Source: Mycoplasmatales bacterium
GTDB lineage: Bacteria > Bacillota_I > Bacilli_A > Mycoplasmatales > Mycoplasmataceae
Direction: 5' to 3'
Length of the DNA stretch: 24,000 nucleotides
Assembly (NCBI GenBank): GCA_965200445.1
Contig: OZ241341.1
Location: forward strand, 412,126-436,125
The notes under the pieces are model-generated. The model worked only from the letters and a program-made list of their open reading frames with translations. It made no database searches and had not been told where the DNA came from. Positions 9,983-24,000 of the stretch are shown piece by piece. A program made the position numbers and the translations under genes. The first letter of the stretch is position 1. Every line of letters starts with the position of its first letter.

Positions 9983-11254
9983 ATGGATAGTCAAACAATT
10001 TCAAATTATGAACAAATTGCTAAAATCAAGGTTATTGGGGTCGGAGGAGCCGGTAATAATGCTGTTAATCGCATGATCGAAGATGGTGTGGAAGGTGTTG
10101 AATTCATTGTTGCTAATACTGACGCCCAGGTTTTAAGTGTTTCGAAAGCTGAAAACCGCATTGTTTTAGGTAAAAACATCACCAAAGGCCTTGGGGCAGG
10201 GGCCAATCCTGATATCGGGCGGCAAGCTGCTGAAGAGAGCCGTGATGAGATTAGACGCCACCTTAAAGGTGCTGACATGGTGTTTATTGCTGCTGGGATG
10301 GGCGGTGGTACTGGTACTGGTGCAGCGCCGATCATAGCGCAAATCGCCAAAGAAACAGAAGCGCTAACTGTGGGTATTATCACTACACCATTTACTTTTG
10401 AAGGCCATTTACGTTGTAATTATGCCAAGCAAGGCACTAGCGAACTGCGTAAGCATGTTGATTCATTAATTATGATTGCCAATGATCGTTTATTAGAAAT
10501 TATTGGTGGCGTGCCTTTGAAGGATTCCTTTAAAGAAGCAGACAATATTTTGCGGCAAGGGGTGCAAACCATTACCGATTTAATTGCTGTGCCTTCTTTA
10601 ATTAATCTGGACTTTGCTGATGCGCGCAATGTGATGAAAAACAAGGGTAATGCCCTGTTTGGCATTGGGTTAGGTGAAGGGCCCGAAAAGGCAATCCAAG
10701 CTGCCAACCGTGCTATTGTTTCGCCTCTCCTAGAAGCTGATATTAAAGGCGCAAGGGATGCTATTATCAATGTCACAGGGGGCAAGACTATGACCTTGCA
10801 CGACGCCAATGATGCTGTTGATATTGTTCGACAAGCAACTGGCAACGAAGTAAACATCATCTTTGGGGTTGCTATTAATGAACATCTTGAAGATAAAATG
10901 ATTCTAACGGTTATTGCTACTGGTTTTGAAGATACTGCAGCAGAACAACAACAAGCAGCAGAACCAGAAAAACTCGAAAACGAAATGAATCAATTCTTTA
11001 ACAATGGGGGTATTTTACGTCCTAAAGCTCAAGATGAACAGCATGAACCCACTGTTAATCAACCAGCAATTGATGAGCCCCAAGCTTATCCCCACGAAGA
11101 AATAACTGATGCTCGCAAAGAAATTCAGCAACAATATGATGCGTACTTGGCGCGGTCTCAATCGCCAGAAAACAATCCAAGCGTGGCATCACAACCAGAA
11201 ACTACAACTGAAGAATTTGAAAATGACTTACCAGCTTTTTTAAGAAAGGACTAA
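9983..11254 (+). CDS. ftsZ: cell division GTPase FtsZ
   Basis: Motifs are [26 protein letters not shown], the tubulin signature [12 protein letters not shown], and NLDFADA. A long Q/E/P-rich linker ends in the conserved C-terminal peptide [18 protein letters not shown] is present. Confidence 0.97.
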
Positions 11255-11258
11255 CAAA

Positions 11259-11594
11259 ATGGGAATTTTTAATCGCAACCGTGGAACACAAGATCAAAAT
11301 AAACCGCTAACCACTAACAAAGACAGAGAAGGGTTCATGCCTTATAGCGGCGATATTGAAATGAAGCCCGAATTAACCAAATCACCACAGATCACCACTT
11401 TCCAACCTTCTAAATTTGATGAAATGGATGAAATAGCTAACCACCTAATTAAGTTCAAGCAAATTAAATTAAATTTAGCTAGTATGGACAGTAAAGAACG
11501 TATTCGTAGTCTTGATTTTATTAGTGGCATTATGTATGCCTACCATGGCCGAGTGGAAGTAATTGGTCATAATATGTATTTATTTTTGATTTAG
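11259..11594 (+). CDS. sepF: cell division protein SepF
   Basis: 111 aa. The C-terminal domain TTFQPSKFDEMDEIANHLIKFKQIKLNLASMDSKERIRSLDFISGIMYAYHGRVEVIGHNMYLF matches the SepF/YlmF core pattern. The gene starts 4 nt after ftsZ. Confidence 0.8.
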   Translation: MGIFNRNRGTQDQNKPLTTNKDREGFMPYSGDIEMKPELTKSPQITTFQPSKFDEMDEIANHLIKFKQIKLNLASMDSKERIRSLDFISGIMYAYHGRVEVIGHNMYLFLI

Positions 11595-11657
11595 ATTTTC
11601 GTCACCAAAAATTTTGTTAAAATAATGATTACTATTATTTTAGTGTGGTAATCAATT

Positions 11658-12074
11658 ATGCTCAATAAAAAACAGCTTCAAGCAGTTATTAAACACTTGC
11701 AGCAACAAAACATAGACTTAAAGTCCCAGACTTCTACTTTGCAAGCGCAAATTGATGAAATCATCCATAAAGAGGATCATATGGATGATGTTTTGATTCC
11801 TGATAGTTTAAAAGCTGCTGACAGCCAAACAAGGGTTAATCAGGCAGAAATATTGGGATTAGTAGTGCAAGGGTTTAATGCCTTATTTGAAATCAAGGAT
11901 GCCTTACTTGTGCTATTAGAGAAGCTAAAAAACAACAATGACCCTGTCCAAGTTCGCGACTTAGTGACAAATTTTTTGCGTGAATATGAATACTGGACCG
12001 CCAACAATGTTAATGATTCGGACCTGTATAAGCTAATTGATGAAGTCAACATTAATAATAAAAAAGCATTATAA
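11658..12074 (+). CDS. hypothetical coiled-coil protein at the divIVA position of the Firmicute ftsZ-sepF-divIVA-ileS arrangement
   Basis: An intact 138-aa ORF with no TGA. The N-terminal half is heptad-like and Q/L-rich (LQAVIKHLQQQNIDLKSQTSTLQAQIDEII). I see no recognisable DivIVA N-terminal motif. The call as a gene rests on ORF length, tight packing and strand. Confidence 0.55.
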   Translation: MLNKKQLQAVIKHLQQQNIDLKSQTSTLQAQIDEIIHKEDHMDDVLIPDSLKAADSQTRVNQAEILGLVVQGFNALFEIKDALLVLLEKLKNNNDPVQVRDLVTNFLREYEYWTANNVNDSDLYKLIDEVNINNKKAL

Positions 12075-12094
12075 AAAAGGGTATTTTAAATATT

Positions 12095-14845
12095 GTGGAT
12101 TGAAAAGGCACTCTTAATATTTTCTCATCAGCCTTTAGTATGAAGGCCAATTTACAAAATAAGGAAAAAGAATTTTTAGCTAGGTGGTATGATCAAAATC
12201 TGCCCCAGATCATTAACGATTGCAATGCTCAAAAACCACCCTTTATTATTCATGATGGACCACCTTATGCTAATGGTGAACTGCACATTGGCCACGCTTT
12301 TAATAAAATTTTAAAAGATATTTTAGTGCGCTACTATAATAACGCAGGATTTTATTCACCTTTTATTCTAGGCTGAGATACCCATGGTTTACCTATTGAA
12401 GTAGCTGTTTTAAAAAAAGGTTTTAATCCGCAGCACTTAAGTGTTGACCAGTTTCGGAAGGAATGCGCTAAGTATGCTGATCAGCAAATTTCTCAGCAAG
12501 CAAGTCAACTAAAACTGCTGGGGCTGTTAACTGATTTTGACCAAAAGTATGTTACAAAAAATTGATCCTATGAAGTAGCACAACTCGAATTCTACCAAAC
12601 ATTAATTAGCAAAGGTTTAATTTATCGAGGTTTAAAACCTGTGCATTGGTCGCCTTCTAGTCAATCAGTTTTAGCTGATGCTGAAATTGAATACCAAAAT
12701 CTAGAAGCATCTGCCTTGTATTGTCAATTTAAAATAGAAGAAAACCAACATTGAAAAAAATTAGGATTGCCTAGTAACTGTTATTTGCCCATTTGGACAA
12801 CAACCCCTTGAACGATTCCGTGCAACCAATTATTAGCGGTAGGCGTTGATTTAGAATACAACTTGCTGCGCCACGAAAATCAGCATTATTTGGTTGCTGC
12901 CAGTCGTTTAAATACTATTGTTGAAGAATTAAAATGATCTGATTATCAGATACTTAAAAATTATCAAGGTCACGATTTAGTGGGACTTATGAGCTTGCAC
13001 CCATTTTATCAACGCTCAAGTTTAGTGGTAGAAGGCTTTCATGTCACAAGTGATATAGGGACCGGGGTAGTGCACGTGGCTCCTGGCTTTGGAGAAGAGG
13101 ACTATGAAATAGGGTTACAGCACAATTTATCTGCGTATGCTCCGCTGAACAATAAAGGTTGTTTCACTGATGAAATTCAAGATCCTGATTTAGTTAATGT
13201 GTTTTATGCAAAAGCTAATCATATAGTTATCGATAAGTTGAAACGAGCGCAAGCTTTGCTGGGGATTTGTGATATAGAACACTCAGTAGCTGTTGATTGG
13301 AGAACTAAAAAGCCAGTTATTTACCGCGCCACCGAACAGTGATTTGTTAATATTCAAAAGATTAAACCATCTTTGATCCGGGCAATTGCAGATGTTAATT
13401 GGAAACCAGCCTGAGCGCAAGAACACATGCTGCGTATGATTAAAAAAAGGCAAGATTGGTGTATCTCACGACAACGATCATGGGGCGTTCCTTTGATAGC
13501 TTTTTATGATCAAAATGACCAATTGCAGGTGAGCGAAGAATTGGTTGCACATGCTATAGGCATTCTTAAAAACTATCAATCATGTGATGCTTGATTCACT
13601 GAACCGGCTGATGCTTTTTTACCTGCTAAGTTGCAAAAACAAGGTTGACGTAAAGAATTGAATATTATTGATGTTTGATTTGACAGCGGCATAAGTAGCT
13701 CAGTGGTTCTTCCTGAACACAATTTACAACCTCCCGCTGATGTTGTCTTTGAAGGTAATGATCAATTCCGGGGATGATTTAATTCCTCTTTAATTATCGG
13801 GGTTATTAAAACAGGTAGGGCTCCCTACAAAAATGTTTTAACCCATGGTTTTGTCAATGATGCTCATGGATTTAAAATGTCTAAATCTAAAAATAATTTT
13901 ATTAGTATTAGTAAGTTCCTTAAGCAGGAGAGTGCAGAAATTTTAAGGTTATGGGTTGCTTCTTCAGACTATACATCTGATATTAAATATGCTCCTCATA
14001 AAATTCAGCAAGTTAAAGAACAATACCGACGTTTTCGCAACACCTTACGTTTTTTGGTGAATAATCTCGAAGACTTTACTTTTGAAACAGATTGGCAAAA
14101 GCAATTAAATGAGGTTGATTTATTTATCATTAATAAGCTCATTAAATTGCAAACATCTGTTAATAAGCTGTATGAAAAAGCTGATTATCAACAAATCACG
14201 ATACTGATTAATAATTTTATTACCTATTATTTGTCATCGTTTTATTTGGATTTTAGCAAAGATGTCTTGTATGTCGAGCATCCTAATGCCCAAAGGCGTC
14301 GTCAAGTGCAAACCACACTGTATGTCGTTCTACACACATTAGTAGATTTGCTTAAACCTATTTTGGTTTTTACGACAGAAGAACTGCACGATCACTTGCA
14401 ATATCCTGCCCGAAAACCCTCTGTCCATTTAAAGCCTTGTTATCAGATTCCGTTTTCCTATAATGAATCAGTTGAGTTGGTCTGAGATCAGTTGATGCTG
14501 ATTAAAAAGGATATTAACCTTGCTTTGGAGCAAGCGCGTAACCAAAAAATTGTGAATAAATCAGCAGCTGCCGCAGTACATATTGTTTTAAAACCGGCTT
14601 TGGCCAAGTACGTAAATTATCGATCTCAAATGGAGAGATCTTTCATCCTTGGGAAAGTGATAATGGCAAATGATCATGATGCAACCTGAGATGCTTACGA
14701 TACTGCCTGAATTAAAATTCAGCTCAAGGCAGGAGTTAAATGTACTAGATGCTGGAGGATAGCAGATCAAATTGATGCCAATGAAGTTTGTGTGGCGTGT
14801 GCAAAAATATTAAAGCAACTAGAAACCGTGACCAATCATGCGTAA
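12095..14845 (+). CDS. ileS: isoleucine--tRNA ligase
   Basis: Frame 2 is continuous to TAA 14843-14845 with many TGA read as Trp (about 916 aa). It has HIGH (GELHIGHA), GW(TGA)DTHGLP, KMSKS (FKMSKSKNN) and a C-terminal CTRCW...CVAC zinc knuckle. The sequence upstream of the first ATG (12140) translates VDW(TGA)[17 protein letters not shown]. That fits the conserved IleRS N-terminus (MDYKxTLNLPxTxFPMRxNL), so GTG 12095 is preferred as the start. Confidence 0.92.
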
Positions 14846-15413
14846 TCTACTGCACAAAACCTGAACACACTTGCGTTTGCATGATTATAAATGAAAACAG
14901 AAACTGCAAATTATCCTACCGATTATTGGTTTTTTATTGGCTTGTGATGTTGTGACCAAAGTATTAGCCCAAACATATCTAACCTATGGGGTGAAGCAAA
15001 ATTTAATTGGCAGCTTCATTCAAGTGCAATTATTAAATAATTCTGGTATAGCCTTTGGCACATCTCTAAATCTTGTGGCTGCTATTACTATTGGGATTAT
15101 TTTAGTGATCTTTTGTACTTGCATGGTGGCATACTTAAATTTACTGATTATTTGCACAGGATTTGCTTTTATTCTGTCGGGTTCATTAGGTAATTTGATC
15201 AACCGCATTTGGAATAATGGTTCAGTAACTGATTTTTTAGTATGGAAACTATTTCCTCCCGAATCCATCTTTAATTTAGCTGATACTTTTATTATTTTGG
15301 GATGCGTTATTATTGGCATTGGTTTATTCTGAGAATTAATTAAAGCTAGCTTACAAAAACACCGTGAAAATAAAGCTGAGGATGCGAGAATTCAGCTTGA
15401 GCAAAAAGCATAG
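14838..15413 (+). CDS. lspA: lipoprotein signal peptidase II
   Basis: ATG 14838 overlaps the ileS stop by 8 nt. 191 aa with TGA read as Trp. It has four hydrophobic segments, DVVTK, NNSGIAFG, GSLGNLINR, and the catalytic Asp contexts VTDF and FNLAD. Confidence 0.85.
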
Positions 15414-15424
15414 TTCTTGGTAGG

Positions 15425-16363
15425 ATGATGATTAAAATTATAAGCACTGAAGCTAAAATACGTTTGGATAAATATTTAGCCCAGATTCTGGTTAATTATG
15501 GTTTAAGCTGGAGTCGTTCTCACATAGCACATGCTATTAAAGATCACCAAGTCACTGTTAATAATAAAAATGTCCAACCCAGCCATATTTTAAATGTCGG
15601 CGACACTATTAGGGTAGAGGCAAGTTACACTGGCCCTCAACAAACATTGGTGCACTCCAACATTAAGCCAGAAAAAATGGATCTTGACATTATTTATGAA
15701 GATGATGATCTGATGGTTGTTAATAAGCCCAACCACATGGTCGTGCATCCCTCCATTGGTCACACTACGAACACCTTGCTACACGGTCTTAAGTATCACA
15801 GTAAAAAGTTGTCTGATTTTCACACAGACCCTTTGAGGCCTGGTGTGGTGCACAGAATTGACAAGGATACCACAGGCTTGCTCATTGTGGCTAAAAATAA
15901 CAAAGCGCATCAAAAGATAGCAGCAGATTTGCGTGACCACAAAATTCAACGTTCGTACCTGGCGATATGCCATGGTCTAATCAAAGAACCGGCTGGTCGC
16001 ATAGAAGCCCCTTTGGGGCGTGACCCTAATAATCGCTTAAAAATTAAAGTACAAGCAACAAAAAGCAAGCAGGCTATCACCAATTTTATTGTAATTAGCC
16101 GGTCAAAAGATTATACTTATATTAAGTGCAGTTTGGAGACGGGGCGTACTCACCAAATTCGTTCTCATCTGTGCTATATTCAACATCCAATTTTGGGAGA
16201 TCATCTTTATGGATGGAAGGAAGATAAACACATTGCATTTGGTCAATTTTTACATGCTTACAAATTAAGTTTTTATCATCCGATTACTAACCAATTAATG
16301 GTTTTTAAGGCTCCTATCCCCGATGAATTTCAATCAAAATTAAAATTATTAGATTTAGATTAA
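15425..16363 (+). CDS. rluD: RluA/RluD-family 23S rRNA pseudouridine synthase
   Basis: An N-terminal S4-like domain (RLDKYLAQ...), the catalytic motif HRIDKDTTGLLIVAKN, and TGRTHQIRSHL. The ileS-lspA-rluD order is conserved as in Firmicutes. Confidence 0.88.
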   Translation: MMIKIISTEAKIRLDKYLAQILVNYGLSWSRSHIAHAIKDHQVTVNNKNVQPSHILNVGDTIRVEASYTGPQQTLVHSNIKPEKMDLDIIYEDDDLMVVNKPNHMVVHPSIGHTTNTLLHGLKYHSKKLSDFHTDPLRPGVVHRIDKDTTGLLIVAKNNKAHQKIAADLRDHKIQRSYLAICHGLIKEPAGRIEAPLGRDPNNRLKIKVQATKSKQAITNFIVISRSKDYTYIKCSLETGRTHQIRSHLCYIQHPILGDHLYGWKEDKHIAFGQFLHAYKLSFYHPITNQLMVFKAPIPDEFQSKLKLLDLD

Positions 16364-16366
16364 CTA

Positions 16367-17641
16367 ATGACTATGGATAATTTCTTTAGCGAAGAGAAGT
16401 TAACAATTATTGAGTTCTTGCAAAAGCATGAACAGTACAAAATTTTTGAATATGGCGGTAAAAATAAAACTGACACATATTTGTTTAAACCTACCTTAGA
16501 TGGGTTTCAAATTATCCGGATCAATAATACTTACCATGATGATCTCAAGGATTTTGCGGTTGAATCAGATGTTTGAAAGAGACTTTCAGCCAAGTTGCTA
16601 AAGAAGCAAAAACATCTCAAACTTAAGACACTTGTCATTATTTTAGGTAATCGAGCAGAGCAATCAGTAACGCTTAAAGATCACACACTTGTAAACCTTA
16701 ATAAAGAATATAAAAATGGTCTTGCCCAGTTTTTCCCAGGTATTAAGCAATTTATTGATGATAAAGAGGTTGATTTAAAAAAACTATCCCCAGAAGAACT
16801 AAAAAACCAAATGGAAGATGCGGGTAGTCGGTTAAATCGGGATCTCAAAAAAATTAGCCAAAAATTTCGTTCAAGTAATCTGATTGTGGTCTGGATATCA
16901 ACGGTACTATTTATTGTTTTGCCTTTTCTTTTGTTTTTGTTCAGTGGTAGCCTTGGGTTTAAGGGTATTACCTCATCAACCCTAGGGCTAATCTTAGGTG
17001 GCTTAAATCGTGATGTTGTAGTAGGTCTTAACCAGTGATGAAGACTCTTCACCTATGTATTTGCTACTGATAGCATTTTTTCTCTGTTAATCTATGGGAT
17101 TATTCTCTTTTTTAGTGTTAAGTTGCTAGAAGTAACAATGAAGCCCTGAAAAATTCTCATTGCGTTTATTTGTCTGATTCCCACCTCTGCGTTTTTAACT
17201 GCGATTGCTATCCCCGGCTATATTTTTACTGGTCCGCAAACCATTGCAGTGGCCATGTACGGGTTAATGTTTATGACCCACTACAGTCGCAAAACACTAA
17301 CATCACAAATAGCTGGTATGCAATCCAATTGAATTCCTATTTTGTTAATTTTAATCCCACTTTTTTCTGGGTCTTATATGACTTACCTAATTTATATAGT
17401 GGCCTTCACTGCCGGAGTGGTAATGTCATATTTCTTAGATTATGATTATCGTAGGTTGAGATGAAGTATTGTGCCACCTGTTTTGATTGCCTTTTGCTTA
17501 ATTGTGGTGCCAATTATTCTTTTTGAAACTAATGTTTACTGAGCTCCGAATAATTACACTGTCTTTAGTATGATGCAGCAATACTACAACCAAAAGTTTA
17601 TGTCTAAGGGTGCGATTACCAAAATATTAGAAAACTACTAT
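16367..17641 (+). CDS. polytopic membrane protein with a rhomboid-like core lacking the Ser/His dyad, plus a cytoplasmic domain of about 190 aa
   Basis: Frame 2 is continuous from ATG 16367 to TAA 17639-17641 with TGA read as Trp (424 aa). After the first TM helix comes Q-W-W-R-L-F-T (both Trp are TGA), matching the rhomboid L1/TM2 WRxxT motif. Roughly six further hydrophobic helices follow. The positions expected for HxxxN, GxSG and the TM6 His read SLLIY, GPQT and AFTAG. Confidence 0.55.
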
Positions 17642-17699
17642 CATATTCCTGCGAATATGATTGGTAATTATATTAGTTTCTAGGATTATGGCAGCAAAA

Positions 17700-18155
17700 A
17701 TTCTGACTTGAGAACGCTTTTTTGTGGCAGTTTGCTATTTATGTGCTGCTAAAAGTAAGGATCCTCATACGCAAGTGGGGGCTTGTATAGTGAACGATCT
17801 TAACCAGATTATTAGCACTGGCTATAATGGTTTCCCTCGTGGTCTTAATGATGAATTATACCCCTGACAAAAAGCCGGGTTAACTGCTTTCGAAATTAAG
17901 TACACTTATGTAGTGCACGCCGAGCTAAATGCTATCATTGCGGCTAAAACCAATATTGCGGGTTGTACGCTATATACCACTTTATTTCCTTGTGCCAATT
18001 GTGCGAAGATTATTATTCAAGCAGGTATTGCTAAAGTGGTGTATGTAAGCGACAAGTATCTTAACACACCAGATGGCCAGGCTGCCCTGAAAATGTTAAA
18101 TGATGCTAAAGTGGTTTTAACCCAAGCCAAACCACTCCGATTAGAGATTACCTAG
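17700..18155 (+). CDS. dCMP (deoxycytidylate) deaminase, ComEB-like; start codon uncertain (ATT 17700 or CTG 17703)
   Basis: W(TGA)ERFFVAVCYL...DPHTQVGACIV...GYNGFPRG...VVHAELNAI...LFPCANCAKIIIQAGI carries the HAE and PCxxC zinc-deaminase motifs. Frame 3 opens only after TAG 17682-17684 and contains no ATG before the conserved N-terminal Trp codon (17709). Stop is TAG 18153-18155. Confidence 0.78.
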
Positions 18156-18344
18156 ATTTTAAGCGCTTAAGATTTATAAAATACAAACTATTTCAGCTGG
18201 AAAAAGTAAAATGTAGAATTTATTTCTTATTTTAATTACTCGCTATTATGAAAATTTTTAAAACCTCAAAAGGAAAGCATAAATTAATTTAAATAGTGCA
18301 ACTAAAAATGTGAAATAAAGCTCAAGATTGTAACTATTGATTCA

Positions 18345-18419
18345 ATGTAAATTACACAAAAAAGTAACAACGAGATAATCATAAAATTTTTATTTATGTA
18401 ATAATTACGTAATTTACAT
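18345..18419. repeat. 11-bp inverted repeat ATGTAAATTAC / GTAATTTACAT (53-nt spacer), with a nested 12-bp palindrome AATTACGTAATT (18403-18414)
   Basis: Read directly: 18345-18355 is the exact reverse complement of 18409-18419. The palindrome overlaps the right arm. Confidence 0.6.
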
Positions 18420-18658
18420 GGTCTATATAGTAATTAATTGATGTTAATGTGTATGAGATTAATATTATAAAGTACAGGAATTAAATTTGCATTTTATGGG
18501 ATTAGAAATCCACTATTTTCCTACACTTAAGTTAGCAGAATTAAAAATAATTATAGATAAGGATAAACACATTAATATAGTTAATCATATGCAAAAATTA
18601 ATTTTAATAATTTCACTGAATTTATAATTAAGTTTTTAAAATTTTTTTAAAAATAATC

Positions 18659-18679
18659 AAACGATAAGGAATCGTTTTT
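18659..18679 (+). terminator. orphan terminator-like hairpin AAACGAT-aagga-ATCGTTT followed by TT
   Basis: A 7-bp stem, 5-nt loop and T-run on the + strand only. The stem is weak (2 G:C pairs). It lies about 500 nt from the nearest + strand gene end, so it is only meaningful if an unannotated transcript exists. Confidence 0.25.
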
Positions 18680-18850
18680 GCAGCTAAGTTCATTAATTAT
18701 ATTGCTTAAGATGTTCCAGCAAATCGAGAAAATGAAATAATGTTAGCCCAAACATAAAAATTTCTATGAACTAACAAAATAATCTGCTCTTAAATTATAT
18801 TCATTTGTAAGCTGACAAAAATAAGCAAAATAGTTTGAGAATTTGTTTTT

Positions 18851-18959
18851 CCCTTTTTCTTAATATCACTAGAGTAGATAATTTAGTAAATCAAAAGCCA
18901 TGACTGATGATTTTTAAAGCCAAAAAATTTTATAGACTCTAAAACCCTTTTTCTTAATA
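18851..18959. repeat. exact 15-nt direct repeat CCCTTTTTCTTAATA (18851-18865 and 18945-18959), 94 bp apart
   Basis: Read directly. On the - strand it reads TATTAAGAAAAAGGG, which is -10-like plus Shine-Dalgarno-like. The flanks are not similar. Confidence 0.6.
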
Positions 18960-19429
18960 GAATTTCAAAGCATGCATAAAGATATTTGCGACATGTAGAT
19001 AAAATAAATTTTAAGATAATTAGAAATAAACTTAAAAAAGAGAAGGCTTATTTAAAAAATTTAGCAAAATACTCCTACAATAAAAATCCTTATCATTACT
19101 AGCAAAAATATAAGAAATATTAAAATAAAATTTTTTAAAAACTTTTTTAGAAAGCAAATTTTTAAACTATATTGATTTTAAATTAACCTGAATGCCGCTC
19201 CATAGATATAGAAATTAATTCACTCTTATTTCTTTAGTCCCTTTATGAAGTCTTCGTAAAATATATTTAAGTATTTTTTGAAAGCTAAAATATTCTTTTT
19301 TGGTTTTATTTTTATTGGTTTTAAATTTTTAAGAGATAAAAATGAAAAAATGCAATTAATCAAAGAATTACTATTTCTAATTTTTTGAGCTTAGAGGTCA
19401 AAAATATTTAAAACTGCTTCTTCTCTTAC

Positions 19430-19473
19430 AAAACTGAAAAACCTAAAATTATTAATTAAGGCTTTTGAGTTTT
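19430..19473 (-). terminator. imperfect AT-rich inverted repeat just downstream of the methyltransferase stop (possible - strand terminator)
   Basis: AAAACTGAAAAACCT (19430-19444) pairs with AGGCTTTTGAGTTTT (19459-19473) at 13 of 15 positions, with a 14-nt loop. It begins 11 nt after the stop (19484-19486). The stem is weak and there is no strong U-tract. Confidence 0.25.
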
Positions 19474-19483
19474 AAAATTTTTA

Positions 19484-20521
19484 TTAATTTAAAATTTTTT
19501 GAATCAAAATTCTTTTATAAGGGACCACATACAAAGAGTTGTTTTTGCAATCTTTATATTTGATACTTTTCCCGTAAAAATTATTTCTATATAAAGGATT
19601 ATATTTTATATACACGCAGCCTTTCCCGTTTTTAACTATTTTACCCTTACCACTACCACTTAGTTGTGTCATTAAAAAGTTATTTTTAAAAGTGCACAAT
19701 TCAGATGTCCCCACACCAATTATTTTAAATTGTTGAGGGTTATGTTTGTGCATGTAACTGATCGGAACTCCTATAATGCCGTTATAATCTTTGGGTATAT
19801 CTGCCACTTTATCACAGTTAATAGCATCATAATTAACATACATAGGATAGTCTAATTCATTGTATTTAGCGGTTAGGATAATTTCATCATGCCTTTTATT
19901 ATGATCTAAATTAGTAAATCAACACATATTAGGGATTGCAATAAGATCTTCTTTGTTTTTACCAGTTTGAGTGTTCTCATAAGGACTTTTGAATGACATT
20001 ACCCCGTGATTAATACCTAGTCAAATTTTATTTTTCATAACCTGCCTAAACACACTGGTAATACCAAGTTTATTTTGAGAACCTAATATAATAAATTTTT
20101 TTCTATATTCCATTAATTGATTCACATATTCCTGAAATAAACTAAATGGCGGATTAGTAATAATAATGTCTGCTTGTTTTAAAATATTGATACATTCTTC
20201 ACTACGAAAATCACCATTGCCTTGTAAAGGAATTTTCAAGGATTTCTGACCATAAGAATTAATTTCTAAGTAATATGTTGCATGATTTTTATGATAATGC
20301 GTAGCTATTAATTTTTTTAATTTAAAGATACCAAAATTATTGTTGAAGTATCTTCAAAAATTAGAATTCTCAGGGTCATCACAGTTTAACAAAATTGTTT
20401 TATTTTTAAAATAAGACATATAATAACACAATTCTTTTTCAATATCAGTCATTGAAGTGTAGAATTCGTCTTTTTTATTTATCTTTGCTTGAAGTAATTT
20501 TTTGTTAAGCGTTGTAGGCAT
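19484..20521 (-). CDS. EcoRI-methylase-family N6-adenine DNA methyltransferase
   Basis: ATG 20521 to TAA 19484-19486 is continuous with three TGA read as Trp (345 aa), joining two ORF-track fragments. Motifs are KDEFYTSMTDIEKEL, ILLNCDDPENSNFW, GNGDFRSEEC, catalytic IIITNPPFSLF (NPPF at 20144-20155), KFIILGSQN, NMCW(TGA)FTNLD, YVNYDAINC and IIGVPISYMHKHNPQQFKIIG. This is the motif order I associate with the EcoRI_methylase family. Confidence 0.85.
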
Positions 20522-20523
20522 AA

Positions 20524-21660
20524 TTAATATTTATCACTTTTTCTAGCATTACAATCACGGCACAAAATTTGACAATTATCTAAGGTTGTAGTCCCTCCTT
20601 TGGAAAAAGGCTTCACATGGTCTGCAGCAGCTTCATCAAAACTAATTTTTCTGCCACATTTTTGGCATTTTTCTGATTGTTTTTTATATATTTTTCTTTT
20701 ATCATTTTCTGAAAATAATCTTAATTGAATCATTTGAGGATTACCCGATAAGGCGTACTCAAAAACGTTTTTTGGGTTTGCGATCGATTGATTATTTATA
20801 ACTTCATTGATTCTTCTTTTTAATATTACCTGGGAATATTTTTTATGAGAATATTTTTGATAAATTTTTCCTCATGCAACTTGGTTTAAATATTGAGTAA
20901 TTGTGGAATCTGGCTTAGGGAAGGTATCGTTTATTCAGTCAACTACGTGCTGAAAAAAATTTCATAAAGGTTTGGCTAGTAAATCATTTCTATGCTTTGA
21001 CATATAATCATCTATTGATTGAAACCTAGGATTATTTTGGCAATACCATTGAATTGCTGTTTCAAGGTAGTCTTGACGATTTGGAGAACCCTTAATGTAT
21101 TTTTTTGCAATTCGATAAGCAGGCCCTTGATTCTTACTAAAATATTTTTTAGCATTTGAAACTCATGATCCATTATAAACAGCATTTCTAATTTCTTGTT
21201 TTTTTAAAGGTTCACCCGACACATTTACAATTTGAAACCAATTAATAACTTCTTCATCACTGCCTTTACATACATATATTGTAAAGCGATGATAATTTAA
21301 TATTGTGGTTTGATACTCTTTATCTCTGTTATGAAAATTTTTAGGATAATTATGTTCATCAGGCATTGAAAAGGATGGATTAGTAACATATTTACAAAAA
21401 CTTATAATTCGCTGCTGGCCATCTAAAACTTCATATTGGTCTTTCCCGTTTTCAACTCAGTACATAACATTTAATGGATAATCATTTTCGATACTTTTTA
21501 TTACTTCATTTCTTTGTTTATCGTTATAAACTCATTCCCTTTGATACTTAGGACGAATATTTAGTTTACCTCTATATCCTGTAACACCTTCTTCCCCATT
21601 ATCTATAAAATCTTTAGCAATATCTCTAACAGATATGTTCTTTTTAATGCTTATTTCCAA
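20524..21660 (-). CDS. DUF262 (ParB/GmrSD-N-like) plus HNH endonuclease fusion protein
   Basis: TTG 21660 lies 7 nt after a GAGGAG RBS. I checked the frame codon by codon: it is continuous to TAA 20524-20526 with six TGA read as Trp (378 aa). The N-terminus has RPKYQREW(TGA)VYN and VLDGQQRI (DGQQR at 21409-21423), the DUF262 hallmarks. The C-terminus has CQKCG...ADHVKPFSKGG...NCQILCRDCNARK (20539-20667), a canonical zinc-bearing HNH. Confidence 0.8.
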
Positions 21661-21689
21661 AAATATTCTCCTCTAAAACTCGAAAATAA

Positions 21690-21708
21690 GGGTGTATTTT
21701 AAAAAACA
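21690..21708 (-). promoter_or_regulatory. near-palindrome GTGTATTTT|AAAAAACAC in the 113-nt spacer upstream of the nuclease-methylase pair
   Basis: An 18-bp inverted repeat with one mismatch, about 30-50 nt upstream of the TTG start. On the - strand it contains a TAAAAT -10-like hexamer. It could be an operator, a promoter, or a weak terminator for the lemA operon. Confidence 0.25.
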
Positions 21709-21773
21709 CAGTTTTTGTTTTTCTTGTTTTAATTATTGTTTATTTTTTAAATTTAGTGAGAAGTTAAGTAGAG

Positions 21774-22859
21774 CTATTTAATGTTAGTGTCTTCTAAGGC
21801 CTTTTTGCGCGCGTAACGTTCGATACCCAAAACTTTTTCTCATTTCATATTTTCAATCATGTATTCCACATCATTGATAATTTTGTTAATAATAATTTCC
21901 ACGGTTTTTTTATAAGTAGATCCGACAGGTAAATGGATCAGAATTTTACTGTAGTCAGTTAAATTAAAAATTCTTTGGAAAGCAAAGTTGACAATCACCC
22001 GGTGGTCGTTAATTCATATGCGCGGTGGTTTTTTGTCGTCACTTTGTTCCTTAACAAAATCTAAGATATTGGCCATGATTCTTGGTTGAAAAAAGCGCCT
22101 TAGCTGCACAGGATTCTGATAGTCAATTTCAAACATTTTTTCAAATTCAGTTGACTCTAATCCTTCTTGAATTTCTTCTTTGCTTAGCTTACTTTTTTCT
22201 CGTCCGAACAAACCACGTTTTTCAGGGAATAGGGCAGTAGTTAATTCAGTAGATTCACTGGTTAAAAAAGTAATATAGTGTCAAGCTTCATAAATCGTCA
22301 CATCGTTGTTGCGGACTCGCACAACATGTGATGTTAATAATGAACCAAAATCATATTTAACATTGCCCTGCATAGCATTTAAATTTCAGGATTCATAATA
22401 TTTGGGCTGATTTTTTTTAATTTTAAAGTAACCAAAGATTTCGTAAACTGGATTAACGTTAGTCCCACCATCAGTTACTCCTTGCAGCTTAATATTTTTG
22501 TACTTGTTAGCAAAAATTTTGTTGGCAACACTGGCGACAAATTCCTTGTCAAAGATGTCCTGTAATTTGTGACTAATCTTACCTTGTTGCGTCGATATTA
22601 TTAGTCCAATAACAACGATAATTCCCCCGATAATAAATAAGGCAATTGCCAATGGTTCTAAGCCATTACCAGAATTAAACAAAATATAGCCCCCCACATC
22701 AATGATCACCCCTAATACGATGATCCCGTAGACGAAGTATTTAAATAGTCTTAATTGAAACAGCAGCTGAACTTTAGTAATTTTGGCTTGTTTGAGTTTG
22801 CCAATGATTTGTTCTTCAATAGCAAGCCTTTGTGCAGGCTCTAGGTCATTTATTTCCAT
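21774..22859 (-). CDS. two-TM membrane protein, LemA-associated (DUF3137-like)
   Basis: ATG 22859 to TAG 21774-21776 is continuous with four TGA read as Trp (361 aa), joining two ORF-track fragments. It has two adjacent hydrophobic helices (FKYFVYGIIVLGVIIDVGGYILF and LAIALFIIGGIIVVIGLIIS) and then a soluble domain of about 260 aa. It sits 37 nt downstream of lemA, an arrangement I recall for LemA plus DUF3137 pairs. Confidence 0.6.
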
Positions 22860-22896
22860 ATTTAATTAACTAAAAACAATATTTTAATGGTAATAA

Positions 22897-23508
22897 TTAA
22901 AATTCGATTTTAACATCCTTGCGGTCAGCTTCAGAAGCTTCAAAATAAGGATAAGTCTTTACATGTTTTGAGGCAGCGGGTACATTGTTAGGGTAGGTTA
23001 GAATAAATGAGTTGAAACCTCTTACGCTGGTATTGTAAAAGCGACGAGATGCAGCAATATTATCTTCTATATTTTGACTTGCTTCTTGCAGTTGCAAAAC
23101 ATTGTTGCTTGACTTTAGATTAGGATAATTTTCTAATTGAACATTGATGCTACGTAGCAAGCCAGCAGTTTCTGAGTTAACTTTATTAATTTGGTCTGGG
23201 GTAATTTTATTTTGCACACTTTGGCGTAGTTCGGTAATTTTAGAATAAGTGCTTTTTTCAAATTCCATGCTACCTTTTACTGCTGAAACTAATTTGGTAA
23301 TTAAATCAAATCTTTTCTTCAGTTGTACATCAATACCAGATGCTGTGTCATCAACTTGTTGGGCCATACGTACAATGTTATTTCGAGCGATAATAAATCA
23401 TATCCACCCTAAGAAAAGTGGCAGAGTTAAGCCGATATATAAAATTATTTTTCCAAAACCGGCAGGCTTTGGTTCTTGGATTTTATTTTCAGGTGTAATT
23501 TCCTTCAT
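22897..23508 (-). CDS. lemA: LemA family membrane protein
   Basis: ATG 23508 (AAAGGAA RBS) precedes an N-terminal TM helix (IILYIGLTLPLFLGWIW(TGA)FII) and then a LemA-like body (IDVQLKKRFDLITKLVSAVKG...ELRQS...QLENYPNLKS...LQEA...NIAASRRFYN). The ORF track's ATG 23367 would remove the TM anchor. 203 aa. Confidence 0.88.
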
Positions 23509-23556
23509 AGTAATATTCCTTTAAAATTAGTTTATTTGTATTGGTTCTATTAATTT

Positions 23557-23562
23557 ATTATA
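23557..23562 (-). promoter_or_regulatory. candidate -10 box (TATAAT on the - strand) for the lemA operon
   Basis: The - strand reads ...ATATTTGCTATAATAAATT..., about 48 nt upstream of the lemA ATG. No convincing -35 is present. Confidence 0.35.
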
Positions 23563-23580
23563 GCAAATATCTTGTAATTA

Positions 23581-24000
23581 TTACTTTAGCTTAAAGTGCA
23601 ACTTCATTATGTGCTGTTGGGTCTCAAGCGGTAATGTTTTTTTGAGATATTTAGCATATTGTTGGGTCTCTAAACTAGCCCCTAATAAAGGTGTTATGTG
23701 GAATTGATTTTGTAGTTGCTGCATAGACTTTAGGAACTGGTACCGGCTTATTATCGACGCCACTGCCACCGCTAGATAATCTTGTTCAGCGCGAACTACT
23801 AAATTGAGATCCTTGTTTCATATTGGTTTTAATTGCAAATTATGTAAATAACCCTGTCAATTTTTCAGCGAGCAGTATGCATCAATAATAACGGCTGGGT
23901 TTTTTAAATGGTGTTTTTGTATTAATTGGGTTATAGCTTTTTCGTGCAGGTATGTTTTTAAAATATGGCTATTTTGATACTGCTGGTATAGATGGTTGTA
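23581..24000 (-). CDS. ribonuclease HII/HIII-family protein, C-terminal part (5' end outside window)
   Basis: The frame is open to the window edge with two TGA read as Trp. RAEQDYLAVAVASIISRYQFLKSM...LLGAS...KLHFKLK resembles the RNase HIII/HII C-terminal catalytic-Asp segment and tail. Stop is TAA 23581-23583. Confidence 0.6.

Follow-up and report, generated by a model that had tools for sequence, protein, structure and literature searches.

Restriction-modification (R-M) systems in which a nuclease with an N-terminal DUF262 domain and a C-terminal HNH domain accompanies an adenine methyltransferase of the EcoRI family are catalogued in PADLOC as the family of REase_II PDLC03418 and MTase_II PDLC03297, with adjacent, co-oriented genes and carriage on mobile DNA. 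The same two proteins, in the same domain order and of the same lengths, are encoded on the minus strand between positions 19484 and 21660 of a 24,000-nucleotide stretch of the genome of a Mycoplasmatales bacterium (GenBank assembly GCA_965200445.1, contig OZ241341.1, positions 412,126 to 436,125), which is the whole of the DNA analysed and is called the window below. The window nuclease is 42-49% identical to family members from many phyla and has all the conserved motifs. We interpret the two genes as a horizontally acquired Type II-like R-M module, the methylase protecting and the nuclease cutting the same site, and would put the probability of this interpretation at roughly 0.8; the pair is a new member of a catalogued but seemingly uncharacterised family, and no named, biochemically characterised prototype of the pairing was found in the literature. 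The window differs from the rest of the family in having the restriction gene ahead of the methylase gene (R then M, as against M then R in the other loci examined) with a gap of 2 nt, in its code-4 Mollicute host and in possessing the most divergent nuclease of the aligned set; this order, divergence and host are locally distinctive, and none of them alters the type of the system.

Three better-known groups of enzymes share parts of this layout. The Type II enzymes KpnI, Hpy99I, PacI and SphI have in common with the window nuclease a Cys4 zinc beta-beta-alpha-metal HNH module in a Type II R-M setting, but they are small (~140-240 aa) and are not known to have a DUF262/ParB-like domain, and no sequence similarity between the window nuclease and HNH Type II enzymes was detected outside the HNH core. 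The EcoRI system has a methylase homologous to that of the window, the same R-then-M order and the same two-gene Type II layout on mobile DNA, but R.EcoRI is a 277-aa PD-(D/E)XK enzyme unrelated to the 378-aa DUF262 plus HNH nuclease found here. The third group, GmrSD, BrxU and SspE, resembles the window nuclease in its N-terminal DUF262 ParB/Srx-like domain with a DGQQR motif, its C-terminal His-Me finger nuclease and its defence context. Those enzymes, however, carry DUF1524, whereas the window nuclease has a zinc-bearing HNH domain (PF01844), is ~200 aa shorter and is obligatorily paired with a methylase, so that it is presumably blocked by modification and not dependent on it.

Both genes were read with genetic code 4, in which TGA encodes tryptophan, and compared with their reading under table 11. 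Under table 4 they are intact minus-strand open reading frames (ORFs) containing nine in-frame TGA codons in total, and under table 11 both are broken into short ORFs. The restriction nuclease gene (20524..21660, minus strand) encodes 378 aa from a TTG start, with 6 in-frame TGA codons, and its product consists of a DUF262/GmrSD_N ParB-like N-terminal domain, a helical middle region and a C-terminal Cys4 HNH domain. The gene of the EcoRI-family N6-adenine DNA methyltransferase (19484..20521, minus strand) encodes 345 aa with 3 in-frame TGA codons. In the alignment the TTG start coincides with Met1 of the homologues, and a GAGGAG ribosome-binding site can be read from the sequence at 21668..21673 (minus strand), leaving a spacer of 7 nt. 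The two genes lie on the same strand and meet at TAA-tt-ATG, a 2-nt gap which suggests that the methylase may be translated by coupling to the nuclease gene. Separate but adjacent genes for nuclease and methyltransferase, one of the marks of a Type II R-M system, are thus present, and the initial annotation had described the two intact genes and their junction correctly, as it had the lack of a specificity subunit, helicase or controller gene at the module.

The domain composition that the initial annotation had proposed for the nuclease by eye is recovered by profile searches, with a DUF262/GmrSD_N domain at aa 34-162 (21175..21561, minus strand; Pfam PF03235, E 1.4e-19) and an HNH nuclease domain at aa 332-377 (20530..20667, minus strand; Pfam HNH PF01844, E 9e-14), and the motifs it had listed are found, including YQREW at aa 39-43. 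The HNH domain displays C332xxC335, D347-H348, N362, C367xxC370 and N371. The core catalytic and zinc residues are invariant over 68 homologues, with C370 kept in at least 90%, and the intact catalytic site that would be expected of a Type II enzyme is therefore in place, in the form of a family-conserved D347-H348, N362, N371 and Cys4 zinc site. No Pfam match to DUF1524 (PF07510) was obtained in the nuclease at E values up to 0.01. The PADLOC profile REase_II PDLC03418 ('Type II restriction enzyme') matches residues 6-377 over profile positions 5-372 of 372 (E 6.7e-98, 326 bits), whereas the Type IV model mREase_IV covers the HNH stretch only (E 6.5e-4). NCBIfam provided only sub-threshold matches to the HNH domains of IscB and Cas9, sequence and profile searches of the PDB returned only generic HNH domains, and a profile of the nuclease family matched the Gme HNH nicking endonuclease 4H9D with an E value of 2.6e-7. 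The AlphaFold2 model is a confident one (mean pLDDT 89.8), in which an alpha/beta domain at the N-terminus is followed by a helical middle part and by the HNH domain at the C-terminus. Its structural matches in the PDB by Foldseek, all weak with E > 0.02, are to CDP-bound ParB (probability 0.77), BrxU, SspE and the Gme HNH endonuclease. The DGQQR motif (aa 80-84; 21409..21423, minus strand), a predicted nucleoside triphosphate (NTP)-binding loop, is invariant in 68 of 68 aligned homologues. According to the literature on GmrSD, BrxU and SspE, the same loop forms the NTP pocket in those enzymes, and nucleotide binding through DGQQR is for these two reasons plausible in the window nuclease.

The methylase was likewise assigned to the right family by the initial annotation, since it matches Pfam EcoRI_methylase with an E value of 2.3e-102, PADLOC MTase_II PDLC03297 with an E value of 7e-93, and carries the catalytic motif IV NPPF at aa 123-126 (20144..20155, minus strand), which aligns with the NPPF of M.EcoRI. 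The Pfam match and NPPF together identify an N6-adenine methyltransferase with the motifs of S-adenosylmethionine-dependent catalysis, as a Type II system demands. With the protein adjoining the annotated R.EcoRI on the E. coli plasmid NZ_OW967970.1 taken as the M.EcoRI reference, the window methylase is 45% identical to M.EcoRI over residues 6-275, an alignment that takes in approximately the whole of M.EcoRI and extends in the C-terminal half to M.EcoRI residue 306. An insertion of ~45 aa in the window protein precedes the PY(F/K)RILI motif that is common to both C-termini. No solved structure was found among the relatives of the methylase.

The distribution of the two genes indicates that they work together. 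Homologues of the nuclease numbered 5551 in a search of 5.8 billion proteins; they are ~360-370 aa long and share its architecture, and the top 120 are all 360-387 aa long, 44-49% identical and endowed with the same pair of Pfam domains. In a genome scan restricted to one genome per species, at least 576 stretches were confirmed to match the pattern, and the matches listed span Firmicutes, Bacteroidota, Actinobacteria, Proteobacteria, Saccharibacteria and other candidate-phyla-radiation lineages, Spirochaetes and more; the genome of the window does not appear among them, perhaps because TGA codons interrupt the search. An EcoRI-family methylase gene stands upstream of the nuclease gene on the same strand in 77 of the 80 loci retrieved, that is in 77 of the 77 that can be assessed, the remaining three having less than 250 bp of contig upstream of the nuclease; the methylase is immediately upstream in nearly all of these 77, with a gap of 1.3-2.6 kb in five. 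The same pair occurs on contigs of Gardnerella and Campylobacter canadensis and on plasmids of Macrococcoides, Aeromonas, Gordonia, Enterococcus and others, where it is annotated merely as 'DUF262 domain-containing protein' and 'adenine-specific methyltransferase EcoRI family protein', and four metagenome loci add to this record of co-inheritance, another hallmark of Type II systems. A few phages also carry the nuclease; a scan of viral contigs with the window nuclease gave no match, and looking up its exact sequence yielded no contig that encodes it.

This distribution bears on several statements of the initial annotation. Its proposal of an R-M-like module is upheld by the Pfam and PADLOC matches and the conserved linkage, and a chance juxtaposition, which it had named as a way in which the proposal could fail, is excluded by the neighbouring methylase in 77 of 80 loci. 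It had assumed that nucleases with a DUF262 domain do not share an operon with an adenine methylase, which is wrong for the DUF262-HNH subfamily, as the 77 assessable genomes and the plasmids demonstrate. The pairing is also not the novel, non-canonical one that had been supposed: it is real but not new, since PADLOC already lists the architecture among Type II restriction enzymes, as the full-length PDLC03418 match shows. REBASE, moreover, contains a probable member of the DUF262-HNH/EcoRI-methylase family, judged by gene order and size, in the putative Prevotella intermedia system Pin25611FORF1345P, for which GAATTC is the predicted site (PMC5608340) and in which a methylase of 323 aa (51% identical to M.EcoRI) is followed 72 bp downstream by a restriction gene of 1104 bp (PMC5608340).

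The closest homologue of the window methylase, at 54% identity, is found on contig L088 (ENA ERZ25878362, ctg12955), which is circular, 25.4 kb long, has a G+C content (GC) of 25.7% and uses code 4, with 7 in-frame TGA codons in its nuclease gene. It carries genes for Rep3, ParA, a single-stranded DNA-binding protein (SSB), a type IV secretion system pilin and TraG/VirD4, together with the pair in M-then-R order. The use of code 4 and the presence of Rep3, ParA, SSB and TraG/VirD4 genes make it look like a conjugative element of a Mollicute, either a plasmid or similar to an integrative and conjugative element.

EcoRI-family methylases have two alternative and unrelated partners, R.EcoRI or a DUF262-HNH nuclease. 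Identity to M.EcoRI among the methylases that accompany DUF262-HNH nucleases ranges from 37 to 61% (median 48%), and tblastn detected no R.EcoRI homologue in their loci; an R.EcoRI-type nuclease is also absent from the code-4 ORFs of at least 80 aa listed for the window, at which no R.EcoRI search was aimed. A metagenome scan seeded with the window methylase (loci L096-L148) yielded 41 loci in which an R.EcoRI homologue precedes the methylase, always R then M, and 4 in which the methylase precedes a DUF262-HNH nuclease. A rough neighbour-joining tree places the R.EcoRI-partnered methylases as one clade nested among the HNH-partnered ones. In the 41 R.EcoRI-partnered loci the methylases are ~46% identical to that of the window and the R.EcoRI homologues 44-70% identical to R.EcoRI, mostly 62-70%. 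Many of these loci come from human gut and rumen metagenomes, and systems of the EcoRI type seem to be frequent in gut communities.

The strict co-oriented linkage points to the classical R-M logic, in which the methylase protects and the nuclease cuts. The window methylase would methylate the N6 position of adenine in a short site of the host DNA, which its family suggests is likely GAATTC or a close relative, and the partner nuclease would cut the same site when it is unmethylated, by means of its C-terminal Cys4 HNH domain of the beta-beta-alpha-metal type. DNA binding would be supplied by the DUF262/ParB-like domain and the helical middle region, and these N-terminal and middle parts may add a nucleotide-dependent control through the invariant DGQQR loop. 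By analogy with other HNH restriction enzymes, cleavage would be expected to leave blunt ends or 3' overhangs, and a nuclease cutting GAATTC in this way would be a neoschizomer of EcoRI.

Several observations weigh against this interpretation of the locus. The R-then-M order of the window contrasts with all 81 other DUF262-HNH loci examined (77 from genomes and 4 from metagenomes), which are M then R, an order that represents an observed habit of the family and not a formal criterion. The window methylase nevertheless has the 'long' C-terminus of some HNH-partnered methylases, which no R.EcoRI-partnered methylase shares. The window nuclease is also the most divergent of the aligned set: among 138 highly conserved columns it has 32 deviations, the median for the others being 2, and most of the deviations are conservative substitutions (Y/F, I/V, L/I). 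No published cleavage data, methylome-verified site or solved structure for the DUF262-HNH family was found in the literature or databases, and the P. intermedia locus showed no GAATTC methylation by single-molecule real-time (SMRT) sequencing and was judged inactive (PMC5608340). As to the site, the 45% identity to M.EcoRI is too low for a safe transfer of specificity, for which Nanomotif demands 80%. Avoidance was assessed by pooling 84 carrier loci (759 kb) and computing, at Markov orders 1-4, the observed/expected ratio of every palindrome of 4 or 6 bp, and the statistics reveal only the generic depletion of palindromes that is common in bacteria, GAATTC having a ratio of 0.65-0.86, which does not set it apart from CAATTG. 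In the window, GAATTC is observed 6 times against 6.0 expected, and two of these sites lie inside the methylase gene.

The most serious competing explanation accepts a true R-M system and questions its target, which would be RAATTY, AATT or an unrelated sequence and not GAATTC, specificity varying within the family through the C-termini of the methylases; we consider it a substantial possibility, if somewhat short of even odds. The lack of any depletion specific to GAATTC agrees with it, and so does the variation of the C-termini themselves, since HNH-partnered methylases have either a 'long' C-terminus (alignment to window residue ~341, ~25 loci) or a 'short' one (ending at ~270). The ~45-aa insertion ahead of PY(F/K)RILI fits such a view as well. 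On the other hand, M.EcoRI and the methylases partnered with R.EcoRI branch from within the family tree, and the conservation between the window methylase and M.EcoRI is highest in the C-terminal half, which is where the target-recognition region of gamma-class methyltransferases resides. The site predicted by REBASE for the P. intermedia member likewise speaks for GAATTC. The identity of the methylase to M.EcoRI and the fact that one methylase family serves both kinds of nuclease suggest that the recognition site is probably GAATTC or a close relative, the case for GAATTC being one of homology and of position in the tree. Related methylases of Campylobacter have been reported both for GAATTC and for RAATTY (PMC13436318), which is in line with the competing explanation.

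The second competing explanation concerns the state of the module in its host, and the genomic setting has to be described before it can be weighed. The isoleucyl-tRNA synthetase gene product (IleS) of the window is at best 48% identical to Spiroplasma proteins, and the host is for this reason regarded as an uncultured, deep-branching Spiroplasma-like Mollicute. Two contigs of sister strains, L087 and L089 (ENA ERZ25067893), have 96%-identical flanks that match the window at 11184-18209 and 21728-24000 by blastn, and between these flanks the window contains a strain-specific island (18210..21727, not stranded; 3518 bp, GC 25.8%) which is composed of an AT-rich tract, the methylase gene and the nuclease gene and has no homology to the sister strains. 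These share the flanks and lack the module, which is consequently a horizontally acquired, strain-specific cargo at a variable locus; their borders confirm what the initial annotation had suspected, namely that accessory DNA has been inserted at the 3' end of the lemA operon. The AT-richness it had noted by eye is equally evident, GC being 25-30% in the module and 19-28% in the adjoining tract against 32-44% in housekeeping genes.

At the island site the sister strains have an unrelated segment of 1805 bp (L087 11777-13581; L089 about 11777-13500). It encodes a lipoprotein of ~340 aa with a lipobox signal (...VVAC|GS) and about nine 'VYASSDGKTIYAGT...GGLSIGTK' repeats, which matches the Pfam beta-propeller repeat Reg_prop with an E value of 1.6e-6. 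Because the sister strains encode this lipoprotein where the window has the R-M island, the locus alternates between a surface protein and a defence module. The island has replaced the lipoprotein gene downstream of the lemA operon and has removed the terminator of that operon.

The operon in question lies upstream of the module (21774..23508, minus strand) and consists of lemA (22897-23508; Pfam LemA, E 1e-43) and a gene for a DUF3137-like membrane protein (21774-22859). In the sister strains a strong intrinsic terminator follows the latter gene (L087 11759-11791), with a 13-bp stem of -14.5 kcal/mol and then U7, and the point at which the homology of the window (21700-21773, minus strand) to L087 breaks off falls inside the loop of this terminator (TAATTAAA). 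No hairpin terminator remains in the window at 21661-21773. With the terminator missing, transcripts of the lemA operon could plausibly run on into the nuclease gene, and the module may be transcribed in this way; a scan for promoters and terminators produced nothing above shuffled expectation, and a promoter borne by the island itself is on that account not established.

A silent or decaying passenger, whose ORFs are intact but inactive in this host, would be compatible with the TTG start of the nuclease gene and the failure to find a convincing promoter of its own, with the deviation of the nuclease at more conserved columns than any other member of the set, with the occurrence of GAATTC in the window at the expected frequency, and with the P. 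intermedia locus, which fits the family by size and order and has no GAATTC methylation. We nevertheless regard this explanation as improbable. Both ORFs have been kept at full length with their nine in-frame TGA codons read as tryptophan, every family-invariant residue of the nuclease (DGQQR, D-H, N and the zinc cysteines) and the NPPF of the methylase are retained, most of the deviations are of the conservative kind to be expected in a fast-evolving, AT-rich Mollicute, and the loss of the upstream terminator opens a route for transcription. The last competing explanation, a modification-dependent (Type IV) nuclease akin to GmrSD or BrxU beside a methylase that serves another purpose, for instance the marking of self DNA or a defence against anti-restriction, which the initial annotation had offered as its alternative, draws on the DUF262 N-terminus with DGQQR as the hallmark of GmrSD, BrxU and SspE and on the weak structural matches to the latter two, but it is very unlikely, given that DUF1524 is absent and a classical PF01844 HNH domain takes its place, that the obligatory same-strand linkage to a single methylase family, seen in all 77 assessable genomes, is characteristic of a protective methylase, that a nuclease cutting the product of its neighbouring methylase would be lethal, and that the full-length REase_II match (E 7e-98) contrasts with a mREase_IV match limited to the HNH stretch.

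With the two genes understood as a Type II-like R-M module, the island marks a strain-variable hotspot for defence genes and mobile DNA downstream of lemA in a Spiroplasma-like Mollicute, and it represents an R-M barrier to be reckoned with when such organisms are to be transformed. That one M.EcoRI-like methylase family is common to two unrelated nucleases is of interest in itself. The interest that remains attaches to the family more than to the locus, as a very common nuclease architecture with an invariant predicted NTP-binding motif. It is conceivable, and for the present a tentative suggestion which we hold to be rather doubtful, that the DUF262-HNH enzymes constitute a widespread, biochemically undescribed Type II class in which a sequence-specific, methylation-sensitive cleavage by the HNH domain, perhaps at GAATTC, is gated by a ParB/GmrS-like domain that binds or hydrolyses nucleotides. 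Were DGQQR to make these enzymes nucleotide-dependent, they would widen the range of Type II mechanisms and provide a simple model for the control of nucleases by ParB-like NTPases, and nucleotide gating, if true, would form a mechanistic bridge from the Type IV enzymes GmrSD and BrxU to classical Type II enzymes. The copy in the Mollicute, whose R-then-M order is inverted and whose genes would be translationally coupled, would then be a naturally re-wired variant.

Some further features of the locus may be recorded. The AT-rich part of the island (18210..19483, not stranded; GC 19-28%) contains no detectable gene, RNA or relic: over the whole tract 18156-19483, which corresponds to the non-coding tract of ~1.3 kb reported in the initial annotation, there is no code-4 ORF longer than 54 aa, no tRNA and no Rfam match, and blastn and tblastx detected no similarity of the AT-rich tract to L088, to the sister-strain insert or to the carrier loci L001-L086. 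A 35-nt imperfect direct repeat has its copies at both ends of the island, the left one at 18223..18257 and the right one at 21720..21754 (both on the plus strand), 3497 nt apart and 77% identical, with 15 of the first 16 nt matching; the right copy overlaps the point where homology to the sister strains resumes and the terminator of the lemA operon has been lost. The repeat may be the footprint of an att-like site, but in DNA so rich in AT the two copies may also match by chance. The DUF3137-like gene (21774-22859, minus strand), downstream of lemA, encodes a membrane protein of 361 aa whose match to DUF3137 is sub-threshold (E 1.4e-4), and its pairing with lemA is conserved in the sister strains. 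In three Gardnerella loci a small ORF of 57-65 aa, which has no equivalent in the window, is situated directly upstream of the methylase gene (L001 4660-4833, L002 4636-4833, L003 4660-4833); its product has sub-threshold ribbon-helix-helix matches (E ~0.007) and may be a controller-like regulator.

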